Assembly (NCBI GenBank): GCA_951406725.2 | Contig: OX597836.1 | Span: 47,368,001-47,432,000 of the forward strand | DNA: 64,000 nt | Direction of reading: 5' to 3' | Source: Octopus vulgaris | Taxonomy: Eukaryota | Shown here: positions 778 to 63,438 of the stretch, in pieces | How positions within the stretch are numbered: position 1 is the stretch's first letter | Layout of the letters: the number at the start of each line of letters is the position of its first letter | Notes under the pieces: model-generated | Told to the model about the DNA's origin: nothing | The model's database searches: none | Seen by the model: the letters and a program-made list of their open reading frames with translations, nothing else | Program-made: the position numbers and the translations under genes

Positions 778-804
778 TTATGTATGTATGTCTACATACG
801 TGTA

Positions 805-1188
805 TTTACTCTTTACTCTCTCTTTTACTTGTTTCAGTCATGCTGGAGCACCGCCTTTAGTCGAGCAAATCGACCCCGGGACTTATTCTTTGTAAGCCCA
901 GTAATTATTCTATCGGTCTTTCTTTTGCCGAACCGCTAAGTGACGGGGACGTAAACACACCAGCATCGGTTGTCAAGCAATGCTAGGGGGACAAACACAG
1001 ACACACGAAGACACACACACATACATATATATATATATACATATATACGACAGGCTTCTTTCAGTTTCCGTCTACCAAATCCACTCACAAGGCATTGGTC
1101 GGCCCGGGGCTATAGCAGAAGACACTTGCCCAAGGTGCCACGCAGTGGGACTGAACCCGGAACCATGTAGTTGGTTAGCAAGCTACTT
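805..1188 (-). mobile_element. SINE family A, split by LINE insertion (rest of head at 6630-6667)
   Basis: Sequence stops at GGTTAGCAAGCTACTT (1173-1188) and resumes with the same 16-mer at 6630-6645. Confidence 0.9.
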
Positions 1189-1416
1189 TATTTCATATAA
1201 TTTGCCATTTAGGCATTTATAAAGAGGGGACAAACAAGGACAGACAAATATAAAGGGTGAAGTAGCTTAACACAGTTACAATTTTCGAATGAAATTACGG
1301 ATAAGATTATAAACAATGAATTTTACGAAGGCAATGTTTAAAAATATTAATGATCATGTCGAAGGACGGACACCCAGCCATCCGGGTAGAACCTTTACTT
1401 TCTGATCCGGTCACAC

Positions 1417-4400
1417 TTACCTGGTGCCAAACATACCCATCTTGTATGCCACAGGCTTCCATCTTTTCACAAACATATCTCGTGACAGACACCTCTTCTC
1501 CAGCCTGATTTTGCTACTGAGGTGGTAACTAAAAAAGTTAATCAACCCCTGGCCGGAGACAAAGGTGCCTGTCACTATACCTTTCGTACGCGTCTTCCAT
1601 ACTGTTTCTTTCAGTATGGCTACTACACAGAAAAAACAAGCCTTTCTTTCCCTGTTAAGGAAAGGGGGCGGCACAATCTCGATGATAGACTCAGCTGATA
1701 GCTGTACTCTTCCCATCACTGACAACAGTTGTTCTACAAAAGCTATCAGTCCCGATAACTCCGGACACTCCACGAATGCGTGCAAGACGGTCTCCCTATC
1801 CTGCTCACATCGCGGGCATGTCGGCGAGACGGCACTACCGTGCCTTGACAGCTTGTCGCGAACAGGTAAAGCCGCACGGAAACACTGCCAGGCTAGGGAT
1901 TTCTGGTAATTATCCAGATACCCCGGCCCGAACGTCCTCCGGAACAGGTTGATCAACTGATTTTCATCGTAGCCCAGGGTCTCCCCCAAGGCGTCTTCGG
2001 ACTTAATCTCCACTAACCCGCTATAGAAATCCGTGGTGGAACTCCTGTTGCCGGCGTTGCCCACCCGAGATAGTAGCTGGAGCGCCTGACGGCACTCCAA
2101 ATGCCATTCACTCAGTTTAGGTCTCCGCTTGATCCATGCACCGATGTCCGTTAGGGATGTTAACTGGGGAAGGTAGAACCGGACGTGCGGCGACCACACC
2201 TGCTCTCCATCCAGGTAAAGCCAGAGGTGCCTCAACCTTAACGCGAGTTTTCGCATCCTCAGCCAAGGCATCCCTAGCCCACCCTTTAGCGGTTTCTGGC
2301 AGCAGACAGAGCGCTTTACAAGTGGCTTTCCTCCTTTCCACAAAAATCGGAAAAGGATTCTCTCCAACTTGTTCAGCCACAAATCGGGGCAAGGCACCAC
2401 GGTCAGACGGTAGGTGATTACTGATGCTATAAACATCTGCACCACCTCCGCCTTCCCTAGCAGGGATAACGCCCGCCCAGACCAGGTCTGGGTTAGAGCG
2501 GTCACCTTGTTGGCCACCTCACTCCAATTTTTCTCAATCTGGAGGTCTGGCCCGAACCAGACTCCGAGCAGCTTAACAGGACCTTCCGTCCAACGCCCTA
2601 CGACGTTATTGGACGGCATCGGCTTGCCCCTCCAGGTGCCGAGTTGCAAACCGACCGACTTGTCCTTGTTAACCTTTGCTCCTGTCACCGCCTCGTAGCT
2701 TTTTATGGCCTCTTCCACCACTGGAAGCTGGCCTTCGTCTGCCACGATGATGGAGGTGTCATCCGCATACGCCGTAGCTCCTCTTCCACACCATAGATCA
2801 TGCGGCGCGCCCCCTAGTGCCTCCATCTTCCGCAGCAAAGGCTCAAGAGCCAATACGTATAGGAGCGAGGACAGGGGACACCCTTGACGAACTGAACGCT
2901 CGATCCTGAACGGCTTCGAAAAGGAACCGTTCACCTTGACTACAGACTCGATGTCGCTATACAAAGCAGCGATCCAACCTCGAAAGGTCGGGCCTAGGCC
3001 AGCCTCTCCGAGGACCGCCGCCAGGTACCGATGGTCGACCCTATCAAATGCTTTGGACTGGTCTAAATGTACCAGTGCTCCCCCTGCGCCAGAAAGCTTC
3101 CCCACCCTCTCTAAGGAGTAGCGTATAAGGTGGAGATTGTCGTGGATCGTTCTGCCGGGGATAGCGCACGTTTGCGCTTCCCCGACAAGTTTGTCCACGA
3201 CCCGCGCCAACCTTTTTGCTAGCACCTTGGCCAGAATCTTTAACTCTGTGTTTAACAGAGTTATGGGCCTGAAGTTCCCTATCTCGTCCCCCTTGTTCGG
3301 GTCCTTCCTGATCAAGGTCACCGCCCCCCGGCTCGCAGACTTGGGAATTCTCCCATTCTGCTGCCAGTTGGCGTAGACGCTAGCCAGCAGGTGCCCGAAC
3401 AAGTTTGGCATACTTCTATAAAATTCATAGGGCAGACCATCGAGACCCGGCGACTTCTCCCCGGGGCACTTGCCCAACACCTCGATTACTTCCTCGGCTG
3501 TGATTGGCCCTTCACAGCACTCAGCCTCTCGTGTCGAGAGGCGCGGGCCACCAGACAGGAAGTCCCTAAGGGCCTCACCATGATCCAGCGTCCCGCACCT
3601 CCCGAACAACTCGGCGAAGTGCTTGTGGAGTGCCTCACACATCTCGTCCCGCTTCTTGATCGTGCATCCGTTTTCATCAACAAGAGACCCAATTGTGGCA
3701 TCGTTTCCACGCTGTGTTTCTATCGTACGGGCCCATCCGGCAACATTAATTCCCTCACGGCCCAATGCTCGTACTTTAGCCCGGACTCTACATCCCTCAT
3801 GTTTGGTTTTGAGGTGACGGTCTAATGCCGTTCTCGCCGCTAAAATGTGAGATGCAGAGCCCAACCTCAACGCCTCCTCTAAGTTCTTAACTAGTTGCCC
3901 TTCTATTCTAGCCCTATCTAGTCTTAGTTGTTTACTAAATCTAATGGACTCGAATCGAATGGCTCTTTTGAGGGTGAACCACCACCGGTTATTAACCACG
4001 GCTCCGGTTAACGCCCTCTGCACTAACACCTTAATCCGGCTACGGTATGCCTCGCGTGTCAAAATAGACTTGTTCAGCTTCCAGTAGCCGGTTCCTATCT
4101 TAAGTGTGCTATCTATGTCCAGTCTACACGTGACCATTCTATGGTCAGTATAGGGCACCTGGACGAGCTGTGGACAACTAAAACTAGACTTATCTCTAGT
4201 TCTTATCACTATCCTGTCTAGATAAGACTTGAACCTTCCGTCGCCACTCATCCAGGTCCACTCTGGGACGTTCGGATGGTCAAGTCTGTAACGATCTGCT
4301 AGCTGAAACCGCTTAAGCAGATCCACGAGACGTGAGTTCACTTTCCTATAGATCGAGCCAACGCTATCGATGTGTACGTCAACGATAGCATTAAAGTCCC

Positions 4401-4818
4401 CTAATATCACTAAAGTCTTCGACGTCACGAGAAAGCCCTCTAGGCGCCGATAAAAATCAGTTTGGAAACCTCTAGCACAAGGTGCATAGAGTCCGATCAA
4501 CCTGAAGGCCTTACTGCTGTATGTCACATCAAGGACGACCAGCCCACCTTCTGGGTCTACATAGACTGTACTTGTCTGTAGAGCCAAGTCTTTACGGATC
4601 AGTACCACTACGCCCCCTCGCCCTCCGGTCTGGCCAGGAGACATGATTTTCTCGTAGCCATTCAGGAGAGGCGAGAAGGTTTGTAGGCTGTCCAGCTTGG
4701 TCTCTGTAGCAACCATCACATGTATATCATGTGATCTGAGGTCGTCGAGGAAACAAGCCTGCTTCCACTTCGAACTCAGACCACGCACATTTAAACAACC
4801 AAGGTTAAGCGAAGCCAT
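1417..4818 (-). CDS. LINE ORF2: APE endonuclease + reverse transcriptase + C-terminal Cys/His domain (1133 aa, uninterrupted)
   Basis: APE motifs LNVRGL, ETKL, GDFN, YLDRI, TDH; RT motifs KSPGLDG, FRPITLLN, LDQSKAFDRV, VRQGCPLS, YADD; GGLG motif; CPRC..ETVLHAFVEC. Confidence 0.95.
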   Translation of the reverse strand: MASLNLGCLNVRGLSSKWKQACFLDDLRSHDIHVMVATETKLDSLQTFSPLLNGYEKIMSPGQTGGRGGVVVLIRKDLALQTSTVYVDPEGGLVVLDVTYSSKAFRLIGLYAPCARGFQTDFYRRLEGFLVTSKTLVILGDFNAIVDVHIDSVGSIYRKVNSRLVDLLKRFQLADRYRLDHPNVPEWTWMSGDGRFKSYLDRIVIRTRDKSSFSCPQLVQVPYTDHRMVTCRLDIDSTLKIGTGYWKLNKSILTREAYRSRIKVLVQRALTGAVVNNRWWFTLKRAIRFESIRFSKQLRLDRARIEGQLVKNLEEALRLGSASHILAARTALDRHLKTKHEGCRVRAKVRALGREGINVAGWARTIETQRGNDATIGSLVDENGCTIKKRDEMCEALHKHFAELFGRCGTLDHGEALRDFLSGGPRLSTREAECCEGPITAEEVIEVLGKCPGEKSPGLDGLPYEFYRSMPNLFGHLLASVYANWQQNGRIPKSASRGAVTLIRKDPNKGDEIGNFRPITLLNTELKILAKVLAKRLARVVDKLVGEAQTCAIPGRTIHDNLHLIRYSLERVGKLSGAGGALVHLDQSKAFDRVDHRYLAAVLGEAGLGPTFRGWIAALYSDIESVVKVNGSFSKPFRIERSVRQGCPLSSLLYVLALEPLLRKMEALGGAPHDLWCGRGATAYADDTSIIVADEGQLPVVEEAIKSYEAVTGAKVNKDKSVGLQLGTWRGKPMPSNNVVGRWTEGPVKLLGVWFGPDLQIEKNWSEVANKVTALTQTWSGRALSLLGKAEVVQMFIASVITYRLTVVPCPDLWLNKLERILFRFLWKGGKPLVKRSVCCQKPLKGGLGMPWLRMRKLALRLRHLWLYLDGEQVWSPHVRFYLPQLTSLTDIGAWIKRRPKLSEWHLECRQALQLLSRVGNAGNRSSTTDFYSGLVEIKSEDALGETLGYDENQLINLFRRTFGPGYLDNYQKSLAWQCFRAALPVRDKLSRHGSAVSPTCPRCEQDRETVLHAFVECPELSGLIAFVEQLLSVMGRVQLSAESIIEIVPPPFLNRERKACFFCVVAILKETVWKTRTKGIVTGTFVSGQGLINFFSYHLSSKIRLEKRCLSRDMFVKRWKPVAYKMGMFGTR

Positions 4819-5091
4819 TACAAAAGTAAAGGTTCTACTTACATTTCGTTGGAGAGGTGGGGGCCGACCTCACCACACGTTTGTGGGCCCCTTCTTTCTC
4901 CTCTTTCTTCAGATAGTCCGGCAAGTTCGCGATATGCCGGATGGCGTTTGGGTGTCTGTCTTTTAATTGTTTGAACGTTGTTTCCGCAATCCACGCGTGT
5001 CTATTTCGATCTTTGTATTTGTTGTACAGTCTTGCTGACTGATGCTGAACCACAATATCGTTTATGTATTTGTCTTGTGTGTCGAATTCAA

Positions 5092-6264
5092 TTAATATGA
5101 GTTCATTTTCTTTTTTGTCTTCTTTTTCTGGGCCAGTTGAGCGGGATTTTTTTTTTTCCGTGTCTGTGGTGTGTCTTTGTTTTTATTATTTTTTGTAGGG
5201 GATGTGGACGGGGATGCTGCACGAATTCTTTTACGAACTGGTGTAAATCCCCCCTCTGATACCTCCATGGTATCGTCTGTGGTAGCAATAGTTTGTTCGG
5301 TAGGCGCCGCAGTTTTTAGGGGGGTGGGAGGTTTTAATAGTGTAGGGGTTTGTGAGTGCGAGGGCTGGGTTTTTTCTTCAGTCTGTTTTGGGGTTAGCAC
5401 CGTAACAGCAGGAGTGGGATTTTTTGTTTTTGTAGGGGTAGGTGTGTTTGCAAGGGTAGGGACTTTTTTATTATATGAGGGGCCTGGTGTCTGCGGTTTC
5501 TTTTGCTTGTCTGGACAGTCTACACGAATGTGGCCCTTTTTGCTGCAGGCGTAACAGGTGGGTTTTCGGCCTTCGACCTGTACCCTGAGGGCTACGTTCT
5601 CGCCCACGAGCACCCTCTCAGGAAGGAGCTGCAGGTCCTCCGCTGTTCCTTGAATTAATATATTAATGTTACGCCCGAGCCAAAATCGAGGGGTAGAGCA
5701 TGTTACTTCTAGTATTTTTATTTTGTCCGCCCTTTTATATAACAGGGCGGCCACTACCTCTACCGGATCTACGTCCGGCGGGGCTTCTACAATCCTGACC
5801 CGGGACGACCTGCGTCCCCTATAGCTTGGAAAAAGTACCACCTCCTTGGTTTTTAGGGGGTTCACAGAATGCCCGCGGGCCATTTCTTCCCCCGAGAAGC
5901 GGACATCCACAGTGCCATATGCCCGTCCCCTGGCGACGTACACGATGTCCTTCCAAATCGGGGACAGGCATTTCTCGATGGTGCTTTTTTCAAAGTGTTT
6001 GAACCTTCTGCTTTGTGGACAGAAAGTTTTAAACACTACGGTCCGCTTCTCGGTCTCCACGATACTGGCGGAGGGTGATATTTTAACATCACCACCCTCC
6101 TCTTGCATTCTTTTAAATAGCTCGACGAGCTGGTTGACATCGATGTCAATCTTCTCGGTAGCCACTGCGGCTACCTCAGAAAATTTTTTAACATTGCTCT
6201 CCTCAAGAGCACTACTTTCGTGAATAATTTCAACAGACATTATTCTGTTGAAATTAGACAACAC
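5092..6264 (-). CDS. LINE ORF1 (gag-like, CCHC zinc knuckle); probably continues to 4835 past a frameshift
   Basis: CYACSKKGHIRVDC knuckle followed by a T/P/K-rich low-complexity region, upstream of ORF2 on the same strand. Confidence 0.85.
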   Translation of the reverse strand: MLSNFNRIMSVEIIHESSALEESNVKKFSEVAAVATEKIDIDVNQLVELFKRMQEEGGDVKISPSASIVETEKRTVVFKTFCPQSRRFKHFEKSTIEKCLSPIWKDIVYVARGRAYGTVDVRFSGEEMARGHSVNPLKTKEVVLFPSYRGRRSSRVRIVEAPPDVDPVEVVAALLYKRADKIKILEVTCSTPRFWLGRNINILIQGTAEDLQLLPERVLVGENVALRVQVEGRKPTCYACSKKGHIRVDCPDKQKKPQTPGPSYNKKVPTLANTPTPTKTKNPTPAVTVLTPKQTEEKTQPSHSQTPTLLKPPTPLKTAAPTEQTIATTDDTMEVSEGGFTPVRKRIRAASPSTSPTKNNKNKDTPQTRKKKNPAQLAQKKKTKKKMNSY

Positions 6265-6665
6265 AAAAATTACGAATATTGGTTTCCCACAAAACTGGGA
6301 AACCTATAGAAAGTTTTTCTTCCAAAGTAGTTCAAAAAAGCAGTTCAAAAATTCCAATTCCCACCCCCATTCGGGGGAGGGGCACGAAAATAGTCTGGCA
6401 GGACTATATATAGTCACGTAAATAAAAAGCCACAGTGGCTAACAGTTCAACGGTAAGAAATTATTCAATTATTTCCCGGTAAAACCGGAGAACAAGACAG
6501 TTCAGCAACGTTTAAAGGCAAATTTTCAGTAGTAGGAATTCAACAATTAACAACACAGCAAAACTCTTACCGGGAAGAAAACGCGTCCAAACCGTAGTAC
6601 GGTAGGCAAAGTCACTCTTCTGTCAGTGAGGTTAGCAAGCTACTTACCACACAGCCACTCCTGCG

Positions 6666-11699: not shown

Positions 11700-11872
11700 C
11701 GACGAACTGGCAGAATCGTTAGCACGCCGGGTGAAATGCTTAGCGGCATTTCGACTTTGCCTTCCATCCTTTCGGGATCGATAAAAATAAGTATCAGTTG
11801 AGAACTGGAGTTGATATAATTGACTTACTTCCGCCACGAAATTGCTAGCATTGTGCCAGAATTTGAAACCAA
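11700..11872 (+). mobile_element. SINE family B, older tail type
   Basis: Head ..CTGGCAGAATCGTTAGCACGCCGG, core CCTTCCATCCTTTCGGGATCGATAAA, tail TTGTGCCAGAATTTGAAACC. Confidence 0.7.
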
Positions 11873-12497
11873 TATTCTGAATTTGGGTAGACAACTGTCA
11901 TAACATTCCTCTTGCTCCGATTCCACCCAATAAGCGATGGCCATTTCATTACGTAACCTGATATCTCTCTCTCTCTCTCTCTTGTTAAAATCAGTACAGA
12001 ATCTTCAAACCGATTTGTTGAGCATTTTCACTCACCAACAGTATCAAATTTCAATGGTCGTAATAGCTTGTTTAAGATACATCTATGGACCCTTTTGGTT
12101 CCTATTTTATTCTGGTGGACCCTCATAATTATTCAATGTTTAAAAAATGCGATTATATATTTTTATAACTAAATATTAAGAATTGTCTTTAAAAAATCGC
12201 TAAGATATTTTGTTTCTTGTAGAAGTATAACCAATTTATTGCAGATCAGTTTTAACAACAAAATCTTATATGGAACGCCAAGGGCCATATGGAACCCGGT
12301 TGAGAACCTCTGGTGTAAGCGAACGTAGCGGACTTGTTGCATGACCATATTTTTATGATGGTTTTCAACCAAGCTGAAATACAATTTTTGGTACATTTGT
12401 TTATCGCAAAGAGCTTCTGTTGGAACAGAGTAAAATCTACAACAGGAACAACGTTTTGGTATGTAAATGGAGTTGTCTAATTGTCGACCGATATTAT

Positions 12498-19919: not shown

Positions 19920-20185
19920 CTAGTTGAAATTTTTAAAAAAATGAAATTTTAGAAAACATTGACATGAAAACTAATTGGATTTTATCAATATTTTTTAAGG
20001 AAATGTTCTGAGAATCAAACAAAGATTATCATTAGAAAGGGAAAATTAGTAAAGGTTTGTGTTAGCATGAACCAATTTGGAACTATAATTAAATGATGAA
20101 GGGATTGCACCTAGAAAGTTCCCCTCAGAGGCACAAGTCTGTGCAAGATTGTTTAGTGGAAGACCAACAGTCATCCATGCATACC

Positions 20186-20368
20186 TATTTCTTTACGGAT
20201 TAAGTCGATTACATCGACCCCAGTGCGTAACTGGCACTTAATTTATCGACCCCGAAAGGATAAAAGGCAAAGTCGACCTCGGCGGAATTTGAACTCACAA
20301 CATAACGGCAGCCGAAATACCGCAAAGCATTTCGCCCGACATGCTAACGATTCTGCTAGCTCGCCGCC
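20186..20368 (-). mobile_element. SINE family B (Tx1-type end, tail middle deleted)
   Basis: TSD ATGCATACC (20177-20185, 20373-20381); ends ..TAAAGAAATA. Confidence 0.85.
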
Positions 20369-34644: not shown

Positions 34645-35090
34645 AGCAGTGAATGAGCAGAGTTGTGAGCATGCTGGGCAAAGTGCTCAGTGGCATTTCA
34701 TCTGTCTTCATGTTCTGAGTTCAAATTCTTCCAAGGTCAACTTTACCTTCCATCCTTTCACAATCAATAACATAAGTACCAGTTGAACAATGGGTTCGAT
34801 GTAATCAACTTGCCCCCTCTCCCAAAACTGCCGGCCTTGTGCCAAAATTTGAAATCATTTAATTGGGACAGGCTAAGGCAGCAAGCTGGCAGAATCATTA
34901 GCATGCCGGGCAAAATGCTTAGCATCAATTCATTCGTCTTTAAGTTCTGAGTTCAAACTACACCAAGGTCAACTGTGTCGCTTATCTTTTCAGAGTTGAT
35001 AAAATAAGTACCAGATGAACAATGGGGGTCAGTGTGATCAACTTAACCCTTCCCCAAAACTGCTGGCTTTGTGCCAAAATTTGAAACCAA
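34645..35090 (+). mobile_element. Two degenerate SINE B copies, older tail type
   Basis: TTCTGAGTTCAAA, GGTCAAC, TAAGTACCAG, TTGTGCCAAAATTTGAAA. Confidence 0.65.
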
Positions 35091-35190
35091 TGAATTAGAC
35101 AGGCAGCCAAAATCTCCTTCAAACCAAACCATACCCTTTAAAAACTGAAAGACATTGGATAATGTTGCATTGCATCAGTGATGGTTTATT

Positions 35191-53606: not shown

Positions 53607-55020
53607 CAATGGGCCGAGAGGAAACTGTCCCTAAAAGGTCGGGCGGAGGTGGCGAACGCGTACATCGCGTCTGTCATCTACTACCGCCTGACCGTCGTGC
53701 CTTGTCCCGACCCTACCATCACCAAACTAGAACGCATTCTCTTTCGCTTCCTGTGGAAAGGATGCGTCCCGATGGTCAGGCGATCCATTTGCTGTCAACA
53801 CCCGTTAAAAGGAGGACTGGGCATGCCGTGGTTGATGATGCGCAGACACGCACTGAAACTGCGACATCTCAGGCTCTTTGTAGATGATGGTGAACAGGTG
53901 TGGTCGCCGTTTGTGAGGCACACTTTCCCACAACTCGTCTCCGTGACTGAACTGCAGTCATGGATCAAAAAGAGACCGAGGAAGGGTGAATGGCACTGAG
54001 AGTGTAGCGTTGCTCTCAAGCAACTATGCCATCCCGGGTCGACGTTGAGTGACTGCAACACAACCAAAGCATTCTATAGGGAATTAGTGGAGGGGAGGTA
54101 CAACGACGAGCTCAGGGCGAACCTGGACGTCGACGAGGAATACCTGACCCGCCTGTTCAGGACGACTTTCGGGCCAGGGCCCATGGACAACTTCCAGAGA
54201 TCCTTGGCCTGGCAGTGCTACTAAGAAGCGCTACCCGTTCAGGATAAGCTCTACAGACACGGCTCGAGAAACACGGGGCCAATCTGCCTGAGAAGCAGTC
54301 AGAGTGATGAAACCGCTCTGCACGCAATCGTGCAGTGTCCAACAATTTCCAACCTGTGAGCTTATGTCGAACGACTGCTGTCACGTGTGCGATGAGTCAG
54401 TTTATCAGCCGAGTCTATCGTCAATATTGTCACGCCTCCTTCCTTCAAACGGGAAGGAAGAAAGAGCTAGTTTCATCATCCTTGTGGCTATGGCGAAAGA
54501 ATGTATCTGGTGAACGCGTCTGAAAGGATTGGAGACAAAGACTCTCCTCTCTGGTCAATCTCTCATCAACTTCTTCAAGTACCACTTGAAAAGGTAAGTG
54601 AGAGTAGAGAGGCAAGTTTTGTCTAGCGAATGTTTCAAAAAAAGATGGGTGAATGTAGCAAGGATGGCACATATGAATGATGAAGCCACCTTGAGCATCA
54701 TCCTATGAACCCGGAAAATTTAAAACAGAGGGTTACCCACTTGCAAACAAATGTGGTAACATATAACAATATTGACCAAGGTTACCGTGGTCTTTTCTGT
54801 AGGCTTTTCTTTCCACGGATAAACCTTATCTGCTTCCCCCTTTACACCATGACATTTCTGTGATACACAATCCCTATTGATCGCTTTTTTTCCCCCCTTT
54901 TATGATCCCTTTTGATCGAAAACCTACCCCACTTTTTTTTTATTCTCTCCAAAAAGGAAAGTTCTACTTTGTAATCTGTCCCGTCTGTGTGCAGCCCTGT
55001 GTGGCTAATAAAGTAACATA
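53607..55020 (+). mobile_element. 5'-truncated, decayed Tx1-clade LINE (sister family of 1189-6629), antisense in TMCC intron
   Basis: YIASVIYYRLTVVPCPD..KLERILFRFLWKG..KGGLGMPWL aligns to the ORF2 C-terminus; stops and frameshifts; 3'UTR 54710-55020. Confidence 0.9.
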
Positions 55021-56534: not shown

Positions 56535-57025
56535 TCTTAACTAAAAAAAACTTATATGGACCCTCAAGGTTGACATGAGACCCCCAAGGGTCATATTTGA
56601 CCTCTAACAATTATATGGGACCCGGTTGAGAACCCCTGATAGAGAGGCTAATTCACTGTTGCTGCAAGACTCATGTTTCTAGTGAGAGGGATGGGATGAA
56701 AGCCCCTTTATCTCCTGACACATGCCATATAAACCGTATTTCTGTGTGAGACCTGCACTATAATATTATTCTCACATCTGGGTCAGTGCTGCTCTATACA
56801 CAAACACCCTAGACTCAAAGCTAAAAAAAAGCCATCCAGCTGATGAACATGATGTGACTCCCACAGATGTGCTTGCTCCTCACTCAGCCCTTTTCTACTA
56901 TAACTTCAAAGACCTTGACTGGAACTCTATCGGTTATGATGGTGATGCGGGTTCCAGTCAATCTGGTCAATGAGCCAGCCTGCTCATGAAATCAATGTGC
57001 TTCCCTGGCTGAGCAATGTGCAAGT

Positions 57026-57402
57026 GGAGGCGCAATGGCCCAGTGGTTAGGGCAGCAGACTCGTGGTCGTAGGATCGCAGTTTCGATTCCCAGACCAGGT
57101 GTTGTGAGTGTTTATTGAGCGAAAACACTTAAAGCTCCACGAGGCTCCGGCAGGGGATGGTGGTGATTCCTGCTGTACTCTTTCACCACAACTTTCTCTC
57201 ACTCTTACTTCCTGTTTCTGTTGTACCTGTATTTCAAAGGGCCGGCCTTGTCACTCTCTGTGTTACGCTGAATATCCCCGAGAACTACGTTAAGGGTACA
57301 CGTGTCTGTGGAGTGCTCAGCCACTTACACGTTAATTTCACGAGCAGGCTGTTCCGTTGATCGGATCAACCGGAACCCTCATCGTCGTAACCGACGGAGT
57401 GC
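57026..57402 (+). mobile_element. SINE family C (tail type 4)
   Basis: Near-identical to 58860-59237; flanking duplication TTCCC(T/C)GGCTGAGCAAT. Confidence 0.8.
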
Positions 57403-57710
57403 TTCCCCGGCTGAGCAATCTACAGACATGTCTACGCTCAATGTAGTTCTTAAAGAGAGTCAGCATGACACAAGATATAATAAGGCAGGTCCTTTGAAAT
57501 ACAGGTACTACTCATTTTTGCCACATGAGTAGTACTGGAGCAATGTGAAATAAAGTGTCTTGCTCAAGGACACAATGTATCACAGGGAATTGAACTCGTG
57601 ACCATATGATTGTGAGCCAAATGCCCTAACCACTAAGCCACATGTTTTCACTCAAAGACCGATCTGCAGACCACCTCCACTTATTACAGCTCACCCAACA
57701 CACTTATACC

Positions 57711-58190
57711 TATTTCCTTACTACCAACAAGGGGCTAAACACAGAGGAGACAAATAAGGACAGACAAACGGATTAAGTCGATTATATCGACCCCAGTGCG
57801 TAACTGGTACTTACTTTATCGACCCCGAAAGGATGAAAGGCAAAGTCGACCTCGGCGGAATTTGAACTCAGAACGTAGCGGCAGACGAAATACAGCTACG
57901 CATTTCGCCCGGCGTGCTAACGTTTCTGTCAGCTCACCGTACCCAACACACTTATACCTATTTCCTTACTACCCACAAGGGGCTAAACATAGAGGGGACA
58001 AACAAGGACAGACATAGGTATTAAGTCGATTACATCAACCCCAGTGTGTAACTGGTACTTAATTTATCGACCCCGAAAGGATGAAAGGCAAAGTCGACCT
58101 CGGCGGAATTTGAACCCACAACGTAACGACAGACGAAATACGGCTACGCATTTCGCCCGGCGTGCTAACATTTCTGCCAGCTCGCCGCCT
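57711..58190 (-). mobile_element. Two SINE B copies (Tx1-type tail) inserted at the same site
   Basis: Target ACACACTTATACC present three times (ending 57710, 57958, 58213). Confidence 0.85.
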
Positions 58191-58577
58191 TATTCCATAT
58201 ACACACTTATACCATATACCTCCCTCCCAGGTGCTGTACATTAGCTGATAATTCCTCCACAAGGTGAGTACTTTGGAATTAATTCCTTACTCAGAGTACC
58301 ATGCTCCTGGAATTTCGCACTCAATGCAGCATAAATATGAAATCCGATCATCAGAGTTCTTTACCACTGGAAATCTCTTCTCAGAAATGCCAGATTTAAA
58401 AAATTCCCTCTCTGCTTTCGTTATTCTTGCAGCTGTCTATGACACCTTACAGGTGTGCAAGAATATCAATTGCAAAAACCTCATCGTTTTTTGAGAGGTA
58501 CACATTGTCAAAGGTGCAAACACTTCCTTCCAATTAAACCAGTGGTACTCAAACAGGGTCCATATTCTTTTGTTCTT

Positions 58578-59535
58578 TTATTTGTTTCAGTCAATTTATT
58601 GAGGCCATGCTGGAGCACCACCTTAAAGGGCTTTTAGTTGAAAAAATTGACCCCAGAACTTACTCTTTGTAAGCCGAGTACTTATTACTCTTTGCCAAAC
58701 AGTTAAGTGATGGGTGTTGTAAACATACCAACATTGTTTGTTAAGCGATGGTTGTGGTAGGGGGACAAACACACAAACATACGATGGGTTTCTTTCAGTT
58801 TCTGTCTACCAAATCCACTCACAATGCTTTGGTCAGCCCAAGGCTATAGTGGAAGACGTGGAGGTGCAATGGCCCAGTAGTTAGGGTAGCGGACTCGCGG
58901 TTATAGGATCGCGGTTTCGATTCCCAGACCGGGCGTTGTGAGTGTTTATTGAGCGAAAACACCTAAAAGCTCCACGAGGCTCCGGCAGGGATGGTGGTGA
59001 TCCCTGTTGTACTCTTTCACCACAACTTTCTCTCACTCTTACTTTCTGTTTCTGTTGTACCTGTATTTCAAAGGGCCGTCCTTGTCACTCTCTGTGTCAC
59101 GCTGAATATCCCCGAGATCTACGTTAAGGGTACACGTGTCTGTGGAGTGCTCAGCCACTTACACATTAATTTCACGAGCAGGCTGTTCCGTTGATCGGAT
59201 CAACCGGAACCCTTGTCGTCGTAACCGTCGGAGTGCTTCCTATAGTGGAAGACACTTGCCCAAGGTGCCATGCAGTGGGACTGAACGTAAAACTATGTGG
59301 TTGCGAAGCAAGCTTCCTATTTCTTTATTGCCCACAAGGGGCTAAACATAGAGGGGACAAACAAGGACAGACAAAGGGATTAAGTCGATTACATCGACCT
59401 CAGTGCGCAACTGGTACTTAATTTATCGACCCCGAAAGGATGAAAGGTAAAGTTGACCCCGGTGGAATTTGAACTTAGAACGTAGCGACAGACGAAATAC
59501 CGCTTGCTGCCTTCTTACCACACAGCCACGCTTGT
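58578..59535 (-). mobile_element. Old SINE A hosting a SINE C (58860-59237) and a SINE B (59318-59505)
   Basis: TSD CTATAGTGGAAGAC around SINE C; SINE B sits in the tRNA head. Confidence 0.75.
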
Positions 59536-60216
59536 GCCATTGGAGGTCCATGTAAGATTATGTTGTTAAAATTTATCTGCAATAAATTGGTTATACTAAT
59601 TAAAATATCTTGTGTATTGTAATACACAAGATTTTTTTTTTTTTAGACAGTTCCTCATAGTAATTTATTCTTTTACTTGTTTCAGACTGTGGCCATGTTG
59701 GAGCAACAATTTGAAGGATTTTAATTGAACAAATCAACCCCAGGACTTATATTTTAAGCCTAGTACTTATTCTACTAGTCCCCCTTTTGCGAACTGCTAA
59801 GTTACAAGGACACAAGAACACCAACACTGGTTGTCAAGCAGTGATGGGAAGACAAATAGACACACACGCACACACACACACACATATACATACAAAGGGC
59901 TTCTTTCAGTTTCCATCTACCAAATCCATTCACCAAGCTTTGGTCAGCCTGAGGCTATAGTAGAAGACACATGCCCAAGGTGCCACACAGTCAGACTGAA
60001 CCCAGAACCATGTGGTTGAGAGACAACCTTCTTACCCCACAGTAGGACTTTTCTATATACATCAAATGGCTACGAGGGTCCACCTAAGTAAAATAGGAAA
60101 CAAAGGGGTCCATAGATAAAATATGGTTGAGATAAACAAAAAAAAAAGCATTTGTAACAAAATCTAACAACAATTAAAGGACAACCACAAGCCTCAGCCC
60201 AGAGAAAATTAAACAA

Positions 60217-60612
60217 GGCGCAGGAGTGGCTGTGTGGTAAGTAGCTTGTCTACCAACCACATGGTTCCGGATTCAGTCCCACTGCGTGGCATCTTGGGCA
60301 AGTGTCTTCTGCTATAGCCCCGGGCCGACCAATGCCTTGTGAGTGGATTTGGTAGACGGAAACTGAAAGAAGCCTGTCGTATATATGTATATATATGTGC
60401 GTGTTTGTGTGTCTGTGTTTGTCCCCTTAGCATTGCTTGACAACCGATGCTGGTGTGTTTACGTCCCCGTCACTTAGCGGTTCGGCAAAAAAGAGACCGA
60501 TAGAATAAGTACTGGGCTTACAAAAGAATAAGTCCCGGGGTCGGTTTGCTCGACTAAAGGCAGTGCTCCAGCATGGCTGCAGTCAAATGACTGAAACAAG
60601 TAAAAGAGAGAA
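60217..60612 (+). mobile_element. SINE family A
   Basis: Full-length copy. Confidence 0.85.
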
Positions 60613-60818
60613 GTGGTATTGCTTAGAATTTCAGTGAAACCAAAACGTACACAATTTTTTGATAACTCAGCTTGTCAAACCTGCAAGTTATTCACAGTTT
60701 ATACAGAATTAATAAAAAATATTTCATCTCATGAACATTTGTACAGAAGCCAAGGAAGGACTCACAGTATTTTCGTGGTTACTGTGTTGAGATTAATAAA
60801 GAAAAGAAGTGAACTTAC

Positions 60819-60908
60819 TCTAGTTTGGCAGTTGTCTAGCAAGTCATGTAAGTCACGGGTACGTTCTTCCAGCTGATATTCTAACTTTTCTTCCATGCTA
60901 CTGATTTC
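60819..60908 (-). CDS. TMCC: TMCC-family gene, coiled-coil exon (90 nt)
   Basis: ttttag|EISSMEEKLEYQLEERTRDLHDLLDNCQTR|gtaagt; joins in phase 0 to ISKME. Confidence 0.88.
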
Positions 60909-62253
60909 CTAAAAGTGCAATTCAGAAAATAATATTGAAAATACAGCATACAAGTAATGTAAGGGATTTAGGGAAGGGAAACTCAAAAAAAAGCAAGTGT
61001 CCTTGTCATAGTTTTTATGTTCCCTTTTCCATCCAAGCCTGCAGGCTTGGATGGAATTTATTGGAACAGATTTTCAACAGCTGGATGCCCTTCCAGACAC
61101 CAACCTTCCTGTTTGCAAGCAAGCTAATATTACCTCATGGCCAGACATGTTTGTGCAGAATACTGGAAATGAATGACACTGCTTGTATAACAGTGACATT
61201 TGTTTACAACTGCCACACAATGTCAGGACAAAGTGACATAATCATATATACATTCACATTCAAACACACACATAAACTTGTACACACACACGCGCACACA
61301 TACACATATGATAGTTTTCTATTAGTTTCTGTCTGCCAAATCCACTCATAAGGCTTTGGTTGGTCCACAGCAATGGTAGAAAACATTTATCCAAGGTGCC
61401 ACACAGTAGGGCTGAACCTGAAACCATGTGGTTGGGAAGCAAGCTTCTTATCCACAGAGCCATGCCTGTGCCCAACACAAATTTGATATTTAACCCTTAA
61501 GTGTTCGCATTATTCTGCCAAAATTAATCCTTTTTCATCCACATTGTTTTGAACTAATCGTGCATTAATCTTGTAGCTATGAGATTTTGATGAAGTAGCT
61601 GTTAATTTTTAAAACGATATTGTAGGGTTGGTGTGAGAGACCAGATCTGGCCATTTTGAACATAGAACATGTAGAATACTTTTGGCCGGATATAGCCGGT
61701 TTAAATGCTAAAGGGTTAAGAGTGGACTTTTGTATTAAAAAATGGGACAATATTTGGTTACTAAAATGATAATTCTTACAAAGACTAGCCATATTTTCTT
61801 CTCTTTGGAAATTGCTTGATGAGTCTTGTAAGATCCACAATTTTAATATTACGATGATGCTGATACACACACACACACACACACAGCTAGTGTGACTGTG
61901 TGAATATGGTGTTCATTTTGTGAAGATAGTCTCAAGTTCTATCTAACAGCATGACACTTTGGGCAAATGGTTTCTGCTCTAGCCTCAGACCAACCAATGC
62001 CTTGAGAGTGGATTTGATAGAAAGAAACTGTATATGAGCTTGTCATATGTGTGGAAGTTTATCTTTCTGCATTTTACACAGAAATCATTGAGTTAAAAAC
62101 AGTGACATCTGTTGACATTCCCTGTCAATAAATCATCCAACAGCTCTGTGCTTTTCAAGGTGAATGCTTTATAAATTCCTGTATTTTAAAAACACAGGTC
62201 ATGTTTAGGAACAGGAAGGGCATCTGACTCTAAGACAATGCTCCAATAATACC

Positions 62254-63033
62254 TATTTCTTTACTACCCACAAGGGGCTAAACACAGAGGGAACAAACAA
62301 GGACAGACATAGGTATTAAGTCGATTACATCGACCCCCAGTGCATAACTGGTACTTAATTTATCGACCCCGAAAGGATGAAAGGTAAAGTCGACCTCAAT
62401 GGAATTTGAACTCAGAATGTAACGGCAGACGAAATACCTATTTCTTTACTACCCACAAGGGGCTAAACACAGAGGGGACAAACAAGGACAGACATAGGTA
62501 TTAAGTCGATTACATCGACCCCCAGTGCGTAACTGGTACTTAATTTATCGACCCCGAAAGGATGAAAGGTAAAGTCGACCTCGACGGAATTTGAACTCAG
62601 AATGTAACGGCAGACGAAATACCTATTTCTTTACTACCCACAAGGGGCTAAACACAGAGGGGACAAACAAGGACAGACATAGGTATTAAGTCGATTACAT
62701 CGACCCCCAGTGCGTAACTGGTACTTAATTTATCGACCCCGAAAGGATGAAAGGTAAAGTCGACCTCGACGGAATTTGAACTCAGAATGTAACGGCAGAC
62801 GAAATACCTATTTCTTTATTACCCACAAGGGGCTAAACACAGAGGGGACAAACAAGGACAGACATAGTTATTAAGTCGATTACATCGACCCCAGTGTGTA
62901 ACTGGTACTTAATTTATCGACCCCGAAAGGATGAAAGGCAAAGTCGACCTCGGCAGAATTTGAACTCAGAACGTAACGGCAGACGAAATACCTCTAAGCA
63001 TTTCGCCCGACGTGCTAACATTCCTGCCAGCTC
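62254..63033 (-). repeat. Head-to-tail array of four SINE B units (185-bp period)
   Basis: Units start 62254, 62439, 62624, 62809; TSD GCTCCA(A/G)TAATACC around the whole array. Confidence 0.9.
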
Positions 63034-63438
63034 CAGTAATACCTTCATCTGACCTATATTAACACAGAAAAACAAATACACACACACACAACACCAACAG
63101 CAATTAAGACATATATATTAAACAGCCACTGGTTCCTATGGTAAAAACTATATATGCTGATGGGGTAGAATGTAACTTCACCACCAATAATGGAGTCAGC
63201 ATTACTGATGAGCATTAAATTTCATGCGAAATTGGCATGCCAATCTAATGCCTCTCAATTGCAGGGAGGAGGTTGTCTCCCCTATCAGTAAATAGAAAAT
63301 GTGCTTTCTGTGGCTATGTGGCTAAGGAGTCCTTTGACTCTTATTTCTAGCAATGCTGGTACTCACTGCACCCTTTGTCACACTTTGGTGATGGTGAATT
63401 ATTTCTGTTATGGTTTTGAATTGCATCTAGCCACCTTA

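Follow-up and report, generated by a model that had tools for sequence, protein, structure and literature searches.

In DNA of Octopus vulgaris, a short non-coding repeat termed SINE B carries the same 3′ tail as a lineage of L1/Tx1-group LINEs, and this sharing is confirmed here as real and family-level. The SINE B tail is in all likelihood homologous to Tx1-group 3′ ends, and mobilisation of SINE B by a Tx1-group ORF2 is quite probable. More specifically, the enzyme that copies SINE B with its Tx1-like tail is likely the ORF2 of a Tx1-like family that is itself probably sister to the LINE named Tx1a below; this ORF2 would recognise the tail and not poly(A). The best-known members of the L1 group recognise poly(A). 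What would a tail-specific partnership then mean in such a group? If true, it would be rare among L1-type elements, would bear on how L1-type enzymes passed from a specific RNA tail to any poly(A), and would name the driver for one abundant SINE of this genome. The evidence comes from a window of 64,000 nucleotides (the whole stretch analysed), an AT-rich piece of animal DNA in which microsatellites and short repeats abound, the repeats resembling octopus SINEs, and from contigs of public sequencing runs.

Tx1a and its surroundings comprise the following features, all on the minus strand:

1189..6629, minus strand: Tx1a, a full-length L1/Tx1-group LINE with two long ORFs and a 16-bp target duplication at both sides
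1417..4818, minus strand: Tx1a ORF2, 1133 aa (ATG at 4818), open, with AP endonuclease, reverse transcriptase and zf-RVT
5092..6240, minus strand: Tx1a ORF1, with a CCHC knuckle and RRM-like look-alikes; stop at 5092
1189..1416, minus strand: Tx1a 3′ UTR, ending in GAAATA without poly(A)
1223..1248, minus strand: 26-nt pyrimidine/U-rich block common to the Tx1a 3′ UTR and SINE B
1203..1215, minus strand: 4-bp hairpin UGCC-UAAAU-GGCA of Tx1a, in the same register as GCCC-CUUGU-GGG(U/C) of SINE B
1173..1188, minus strand: target duplication of Tx1a, 3′ copy (AAGTAGCTTGCTAACC), within a SINE A head
6630..6645, minus strand: target duplication of Tx1a, 5′ copy; the SINE A head runs on to about 6667
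795..1188, minus strand: host SINE A, 3′ part, 96% like an uninterrupted copy (352/367)

Tx1a belongs to the L1 superfamily (L1 plus Tx1), as is shown by its two ORFs, its 16-bp duplication (the class limit being about 20 bp) and its set of AP endonuclease, reverse transcriptase and C-terminal zinc motif. The closest solved relative of its ORF2 is human L1 ORF2p (E 8e-67, against 2e-20 for R2). Within the superfamily, the make-up of ORF1 makes the Tx1 clade its likely place: zf-CCHC is found at the Pfam cut-off, Transposase_22 was not found in the Pfam search of ORF1, and look-alikes with RRM/ZCCHC3-type domains come at 0.90-0.93 (a lead only). Such a type I ORF1 (RRM plus CCHC, without Transposase_22) fits the Tx1 clade, its RRM part standing as a lead, and an ORF1 of the RRM plus CCHC type is tied to Tx1 in non-mammalian animals in the accessible text of one study (PMC5203782). 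The preliminary description had called the element intact, which is borne out for ORF2 and fails for ORF1: a 115-aa frame (5182-4835) crosses an 11-A run (5147-5157) and ends just short of ORF2, and ORF1 is probably frameshifted at this run, either really or through assembly. Both target duplications are perfect, the insertion site being the head of SINE A. The 3′ junction reads GAAATA/AAGTAG, so that at most two extra A's could be a vestigial A-tail and not target duplication.

The 26-nt block was said beforehand to be identical at 59350-59375 and nearly identical elsewhere. Both statements hold, with six further copies of one or two mismatches each at 57743, 57991, 62286, 62471, 62656 and 62841; it is thus present in seven of the eight SINE B units with 0-2 mismatches (24-26/26 kept), all seven on the minus strand, as in Tx1a. 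A chance match was considered and is ruled out by shuffling: 100 dinucleotide shuffles of the window gave no block match, and local alignments of the Tx1a 3′ UTR with three SINE B copies score 49-52, where shuffled sequences reach at most 28-30 (0/1000 each). The block, the hairpin and the 3′ end are equally spaced in LINE and SINE, within 2 nt. No match to the block occurs in viral, metagenome and prokaryote contigs, and at 80 metagenome loci encoding remote ORF2 relatives (23-44% identity), neither the LINE UTRs nor SINE B found a match at E < 0.06; judged from these searches, the Tx1/SINE B tail would be either lineage-restricted or too diverged to match at such loci.

A segment in the middle of SINE A (60404-60427, and in other copies), lying directly behind a (TA)n(GT)n microsatellite, agrees with the block at 21/24 positions (score 33, against a shuffled maximum of 29). 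The block motif is therefore not unique to the Tx1a/SINE B pair; the look-alike is either an old Tx1 tail remnant or a product of low-complexity chance.

Does the block belong to the LINE family, or only to the copy at hand? Tx1a is present in 20 of the 24 public runs listed, from two organisms, with no RNA run among the listed runs that contain it. Contigs from four of these 20 runs (X1, X12, X15 and X16) were aligned to 1140-1740, the rows examined being 30 of about 64,000 pieces and 24 of about 727 loose ends, the latter dominated by SINE A. One X12 contig runs from the block into ORF2 (1221-1488) with 0 differences at a depth of 1298, the six other X12 contigs listed having 12-31; an X16 contig (1233-1486) has a depth of 402, its seven neighbours 4-10; and in X1 one contig covers 1227-1480. 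Contigs joining block and ORF2 are 40-110 times deeper than neighbouring contigs, depth being here a rough sign of many copies and no copy number. Capture of the block by this one Tx1a copy is ruled out by these multi-copy contigs, and the block clearly belongs to a multi-copy LINE family. Absence of the block from other Tx1 copies, the outcome named in advance as adverse, is not what was seen, since multi-copy contigs and diverged relatives alike keep it. Among the latter, a contig found in X12 and X15 has an ORF2 end about 85% alike, followed by 149 unrelated letters, and rejoins at 1248 with the SINE A flank present, 25 gap positions of this contig lying somewhere in 1144-1248; and more joints lead from ORF2 to 1244-1268 (among 15 of 26 joints). 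A second Tx1a-family copy, about 88% alike (20 differences in about 208), matches as far as 1188, one A past GAAATA, and then departs, which fixes the LINE 3′ end there and argues against poly(A). An X1 contig (1166-1267, 10 differences) is a probable second LINE copy in SINE A. The flanks of other copies at the LINE 3′ end are known for a few contigs only; the SINE A flank is seen in the window Tx1a and in two contig types and is missing from one contig, hinting at a SINE-targeting Tx1 lineage. In the Tx1 clade, insertion into a particular repeat or RNA gene is frequent without being universal.

Position 1220 is C on the plus strand in about 90% of the depth in X12 and X16, in all of X1 and in 36% of X15. 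As C is also the state of SINE B and Tx1b, and the majority, the window Tx1a may carry a minority base beside the block.

SINE B is dispersed and is represented in the window by eight units at five insertions, 86-100% alike:

59318..59511, minus strand: SINE B with an internal head deletion, in a SINE A head within 4 nt of the Tx1a site
57711..57935, minus strand: SINE B with an 18-bp target duplication starting GGTAT
57959..58189, minus strand: SINE B sharing the site of the copy at 57711..57935, with a 13-bp duplication starting GGTAT
62254..63033, minus strand: four SINE B units in an array of period 185, with a flanking 14-bp duplication (1 mismatch) starting GGTAT
20186..20368, minus strand: SINE B without about 48 nt of tail (block and hairpin), its last 10 nt kept, with a duplication of about 12 bp starting GGTAT

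Its head shows, by eye only, box-like motifs and pairing ends; ARAGORN returned 0 tRNA genes on SINE B, Rfam searched over 57000-63100 gave no tRNA match on it, and a T4 run is missing from seven of the eight units. SINE B may resemble the V-domain SINE superfamily, whose mark is a central V domain.

The insertion marks fit an L1/Tx1-group enzyme. The GAAATA ends without poly(A) that had been described for LINE and SINE are found in Tx1a and in all eight SINE B units; no poly(A) stands at any LINE/SINE B junction examined. Duplications of 12-18 bp starting GGTAT accompany four of the five SINE B insertions, and for the fifth (59318) the script found no target duplication, a 4-9-bp reading being possible. 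GGTAT, which has a frequency of 0.0007 per site in the window, follows at five of six SINE B junction types, the array's inner junctions included (GAAATA/GGTAT at 20181, 57706, 57954, 62249, 62434, 62619 and 62804). One insertion in five falls within 4 nt of the Tx1a site in a SINE A head, with a chance of about 0.006 by hand estimate over 18 SINE A heads. The target of Tx1a itself starts AAGTAG, unlike the GGTAT of SINE B; this difference suggests either that SINE B depends on another, related enzyme or that priming involves base-pairing of read-through RNA. Could a LINE of another clade (RTE, CR1, L2 or R4) mobilise SINE B, its Tx1-like tail being a relic or convergent? Octopus vulgaris has these clades in abundance and with recent activity (accessible text of PMC13282606), and the mollusc SINE partners given so far in the accessible text of PMC11481361 are CR1, CR1-Zenon, L2 and Nimb; but none of the eight units bears a short tandem-repeat tail, and the SINE B tail matches only two LINEs, both of the L1/Tx1 group and the sole LINEs searched for in the window. 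Such a driver is very improbable.

Several features of the copies may be recorded alongside. The head of SINE B itself contains a GGTAT motif, a possible reason for the self-insertion and the tandem arrays. The copies at 57711 and 57959 stand in tandem around one duplication. In the array at 62254-63033 the three inner units are 98-100% alike and 94-96% like the outer unit, suggesting local amplification after one self-insertion. The copy at 59318 lacks about 30 nt of head at 59505-59511, joined at an AGC microhomology. A third SINE family (57025-57406, 58859-59240 and five shorter copies) has its copy at 58859 nested in the SINE A that also contains SINE B 59318, making a three-layer nest.

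The direction in which the tail travelled is indicated by three sister SINEs that combine the SINE B head and body with another tail:

11704..11880, plus strand: sister SINE, SINE B head and body; other tail at 11828-11880
34664..34864, plus strand: sister SINE; other tail at 34815-34864
34884..35100, plus strand: sister SINE; other tail at 35047-35100

All three match SINE B up to GACTTA/AACTTA and then differ, the switch lying about 6 nt before the block. The SINE B tail, about 58 nt long, is therefore an acquired module; and as tail exchange is a known route by which SINEs change LINE partner (accessible texts of PMC5786205, PMC4824008 and PMC11481361), a transfer from LINE to SINE is the most likely course.

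Further evidence on its origin comes from a second LINE:

53610..55018, plus strand: Tx1b, a decayed, 5′-truncated L1/Tx1-group LINE, 59% aa identical to Tx1a ORF2

No target duplication of Tx1b was recognised by eye, and it ends in GTAACA, not GAAATA. Its 3′ end and the final 40 nt of SINE B agree at 33/40 positions (0/1000 shuffles as good for two copies, 2/1000 for a third). The SINE B tail is a mosaic, Tx1a-like in its block (24-26/26, against 13-15/26 with Tx1b) and Tx1b-like at its end: past the block, over the last 32 nt without gaps, 12-14/32 are alike with Tx1a and 22-25/32 with Tx1b. The UTRs of Tx1a and Tx1b show no mutual match above chance (252/1000 shuffles as good), and no LINE with the complete SINE B tail was found within the window. 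Given the mosaic tail and this lack of a match between the two UTRs, the simplest donor is a third, sister family. The converse origin, in which an ancestor of the Tx1a lineage took the block from SINE B or from the SINE A look-alike, would leave the identity silent on the mobiliser. It would agree with a read depth of SINE B far above that of the LINE, with the mosaic itself, and with the 21/24 look-alike in SINE A, in which Tx1a sits. It is improbable nonetheless: single-copy capture is excluded by the contigs, the last 40 nt are independently common to Tx1b, the part that was swapped is the SINE's tail, and the spacing of block, hairpin and end is equal within 2 nt.

A tail moving from a sister family to SINE B thus stands as the preferred origin, and that family is a likelier driver than Tx1a itself, because the loops (UAAAU in Tx1a, CUUGU in SINE B) and the targets (AAGTAG, GGTAT) differ and the last 32 nt of SINE B are closer to Tx1b. 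The preliminary description had left the choice between the element at hand and a sister family; the second branch is favoured, and Tx1a as the main driver of SINE B is unlikely. The expected partner family would carry the block, a CUUGU-type loop and AATAAAGAAATA, and would insert at GGTAT.

What would such an enzyme recognise? The hairpins described earlier for Tx1a, SINE B and Tx1b (AGCC-CUGUGU-GGCU, about 54990) do read as given, and a hairpin in the LINE and SINE tails is plausible as a predicted structure. Comparison of Tx1a with SINE B shows two of its four stem pairs replaced at both positions (18/500 shuffles as high; slid controls 0-1), in a count over eight related sequences; a single sequence accounts for the two changes, each of them a single event. 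LINE variants near the hairpin, among 40 of 140 variants, fall in the loop (1209, 1210) and none in the stem. Against this, five folded tails compared with shuffles give z of -1.72, -1.61, -1.01, -0.02 and +0.18; stem pairing probability among SINE B copies ranges from 0.04 to 0.98 depending on context; the Tx1b hairpin forms only when its register is shifted; and the predicted Tx1a fold leaves most of the block, the most conserved part, unpaired. A longer consensus helix from RNAalifold had a covariation term of -0.02 and was dropped. The loops of Tx1a and SINE B are moreover unrelated, and it is the loop that sets specificity in zebrafish L2 pairs (accessible text of PMC4176376). That the recognised feature is the hairpin is accordingly rather doubtful. 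Of the earlier proposal that a Tx1-clade ORF2 mobilises the SINE via a structured tail, the family-level, swapped-in tail and the L1/Tx1-type insertion marks stand, while recognition of a structure stays a conjecture, the folds being no better than shuffles and the block being predicted unpaired in Tx1a.

A strict requirement for the tail is evenly balanced. The Tx1-derived tail might now be a passenger, a relaxed enzyme needing only the last 10 nt or so, or pairing between RNA end and target. This would suit the weak folds, the constant GAAATA/GGTAT junctions, which fit priming by pairing, and the copy at 20186-20368, which has a normal duplication without block and hairpin; that 48-nt deletion, however, shows a 2-nt microhomology and may be later than the insertion. 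The block, moreover, is kept at 24-26/26 though the SINE copies are 86-96% alike overall, and diverged LINE relatives with an unrelated upstream UTR keep it too, so that a passenger tail is fairly improbable. Under recognition of the tail by a Tx1-like ORF2, an ancestral tRNA-type SINE would have gained a Tx1 3′ end by template switch; ORF2 would bind the U/C-rich block, the small hairpin or both in the SINE RNA; reverse transcription, primed by the target, would begin at the fixed point GAAAUA; and the GGTAT bias would come from the partner's endonuclease or else from read-through RNA pairing with the nicked target.

Taken at its broadest, and as a tentative proposal somewhat short of even chances, this would be the first animal L1/Tx1-group LINE with a tail-sharing SINE: a Tx1 radiation recognising a poly(A)-less tail, with a fixed start nucleotide and SINE-head targets, driving a very abundant, tail-acquiring SINE, and implying that stringent recognition is likely ancestral in animal L1/Tx1 too. 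A swap system for the tail and target specificity of an L1-like ORF2 is thereby on offer: the Tx1-like family is young and multi-copy and its ORF2 is open, its sister families differ in loop and target, and the SINE, with its tail of 58 nt, is abundant.

How does this pair compare with known systems? No Tx1-SINE shared-tail pair was found in the open literature; Repbase, Dfam and SINEBase, outside the search, may list one. The accessible texts of PMC4758252, PMC13295347, PMC5753468, PMC8967140 and PMC11203168 hold no pairing information. In an annotation of Octopus vulgaris, 13 L1-Tx1 families count as recently active and most SINEs are unclassified; no LINE-SINE pairing was found in the accessible parts of the article and its supplement (PMC13282606). 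The closest case by clade is SINEU of crocodilians, assigned to Tx1-Mar by target only and having snRNA heads and poly(A) tails; for SINEU-1, no LINE was found sharing its 3′ end (Kojima, 2015; PMC4494074, accessible text). SINEU/Tx1-Mar and SINE B have in common an attribution to the Tx1 clade, probable for SINE B, and a preference, apparent for SINE B, for a site within another mobile element, and SINEU-3, like SINE B, shows tandem insertions around a target duplication (same text of PMC4494074). Unlike SINEU, SINE B is linked to its LINE by a shared tail without poly(A), and its head is putatively tRNA-like.

By shared tail, the nearest systems are ZmSINE2 and ZmSINE3 with LINE1-1_ZM, and SINEX-3_CR with L1-1_CR, of the L1 clade (Ohshima, 2012, PMC3472496; Ohshima, 2013, PMC3747384). 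In the accessible parts of these two articles, SINEs with L1 tails number three among 58 pairs, all plant (monocot) or green-algal, their tails are interpreted as stringent recognition, and no Tx1 pair is named. Insofar as these texts show, the tail-sharing pairs of the L1 superfamily are plant or algal, to which one Tx1-assigned SINE class without a shared tail may be added. These pairs resemble SINE B and its LINE in joining an L1-superfamily LINE to a SINE, of tRNA type there and putatively so here, through a short common 3′ end with a variable-stem hairpin, which in SINE B and Tx1a is a predicted one; SINE B differs in being animal and Tx1-like, in lacking a terminal repeat and in its target bias.

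In the stringent L2 pairs (UnaL2/UnaSINE, ZfL2-1/-2), binding of the common tail stem-loop by ORF2 is assay-shown, whereas for SINE B it is a proposal (Hayashi, 2014; PMC4176376, accessible text). These pairs need loop identity and their tails end in tandem repeats, while the loops of SINE B and Tx1a differ (same text of PMC4176376). Finally, the conserved-body SINEs of molluscs are like SINE B in combining one head and body with different LINE-derived tails (accessible texts of Nishihara, 2016, PMC4824008; Martelossi, 2024, PMC11481361; Kojima, 2018, PMC5786205). The term Tx1 does not occur in the accessible text of PMC4824008 or PMC5786205; the partners of these SINEs, as far as the same three texts go, are CR1, CR1-Zenon, L2, Nimb, RTE and Vingi, whereas that of SINE B is Tx1-like.
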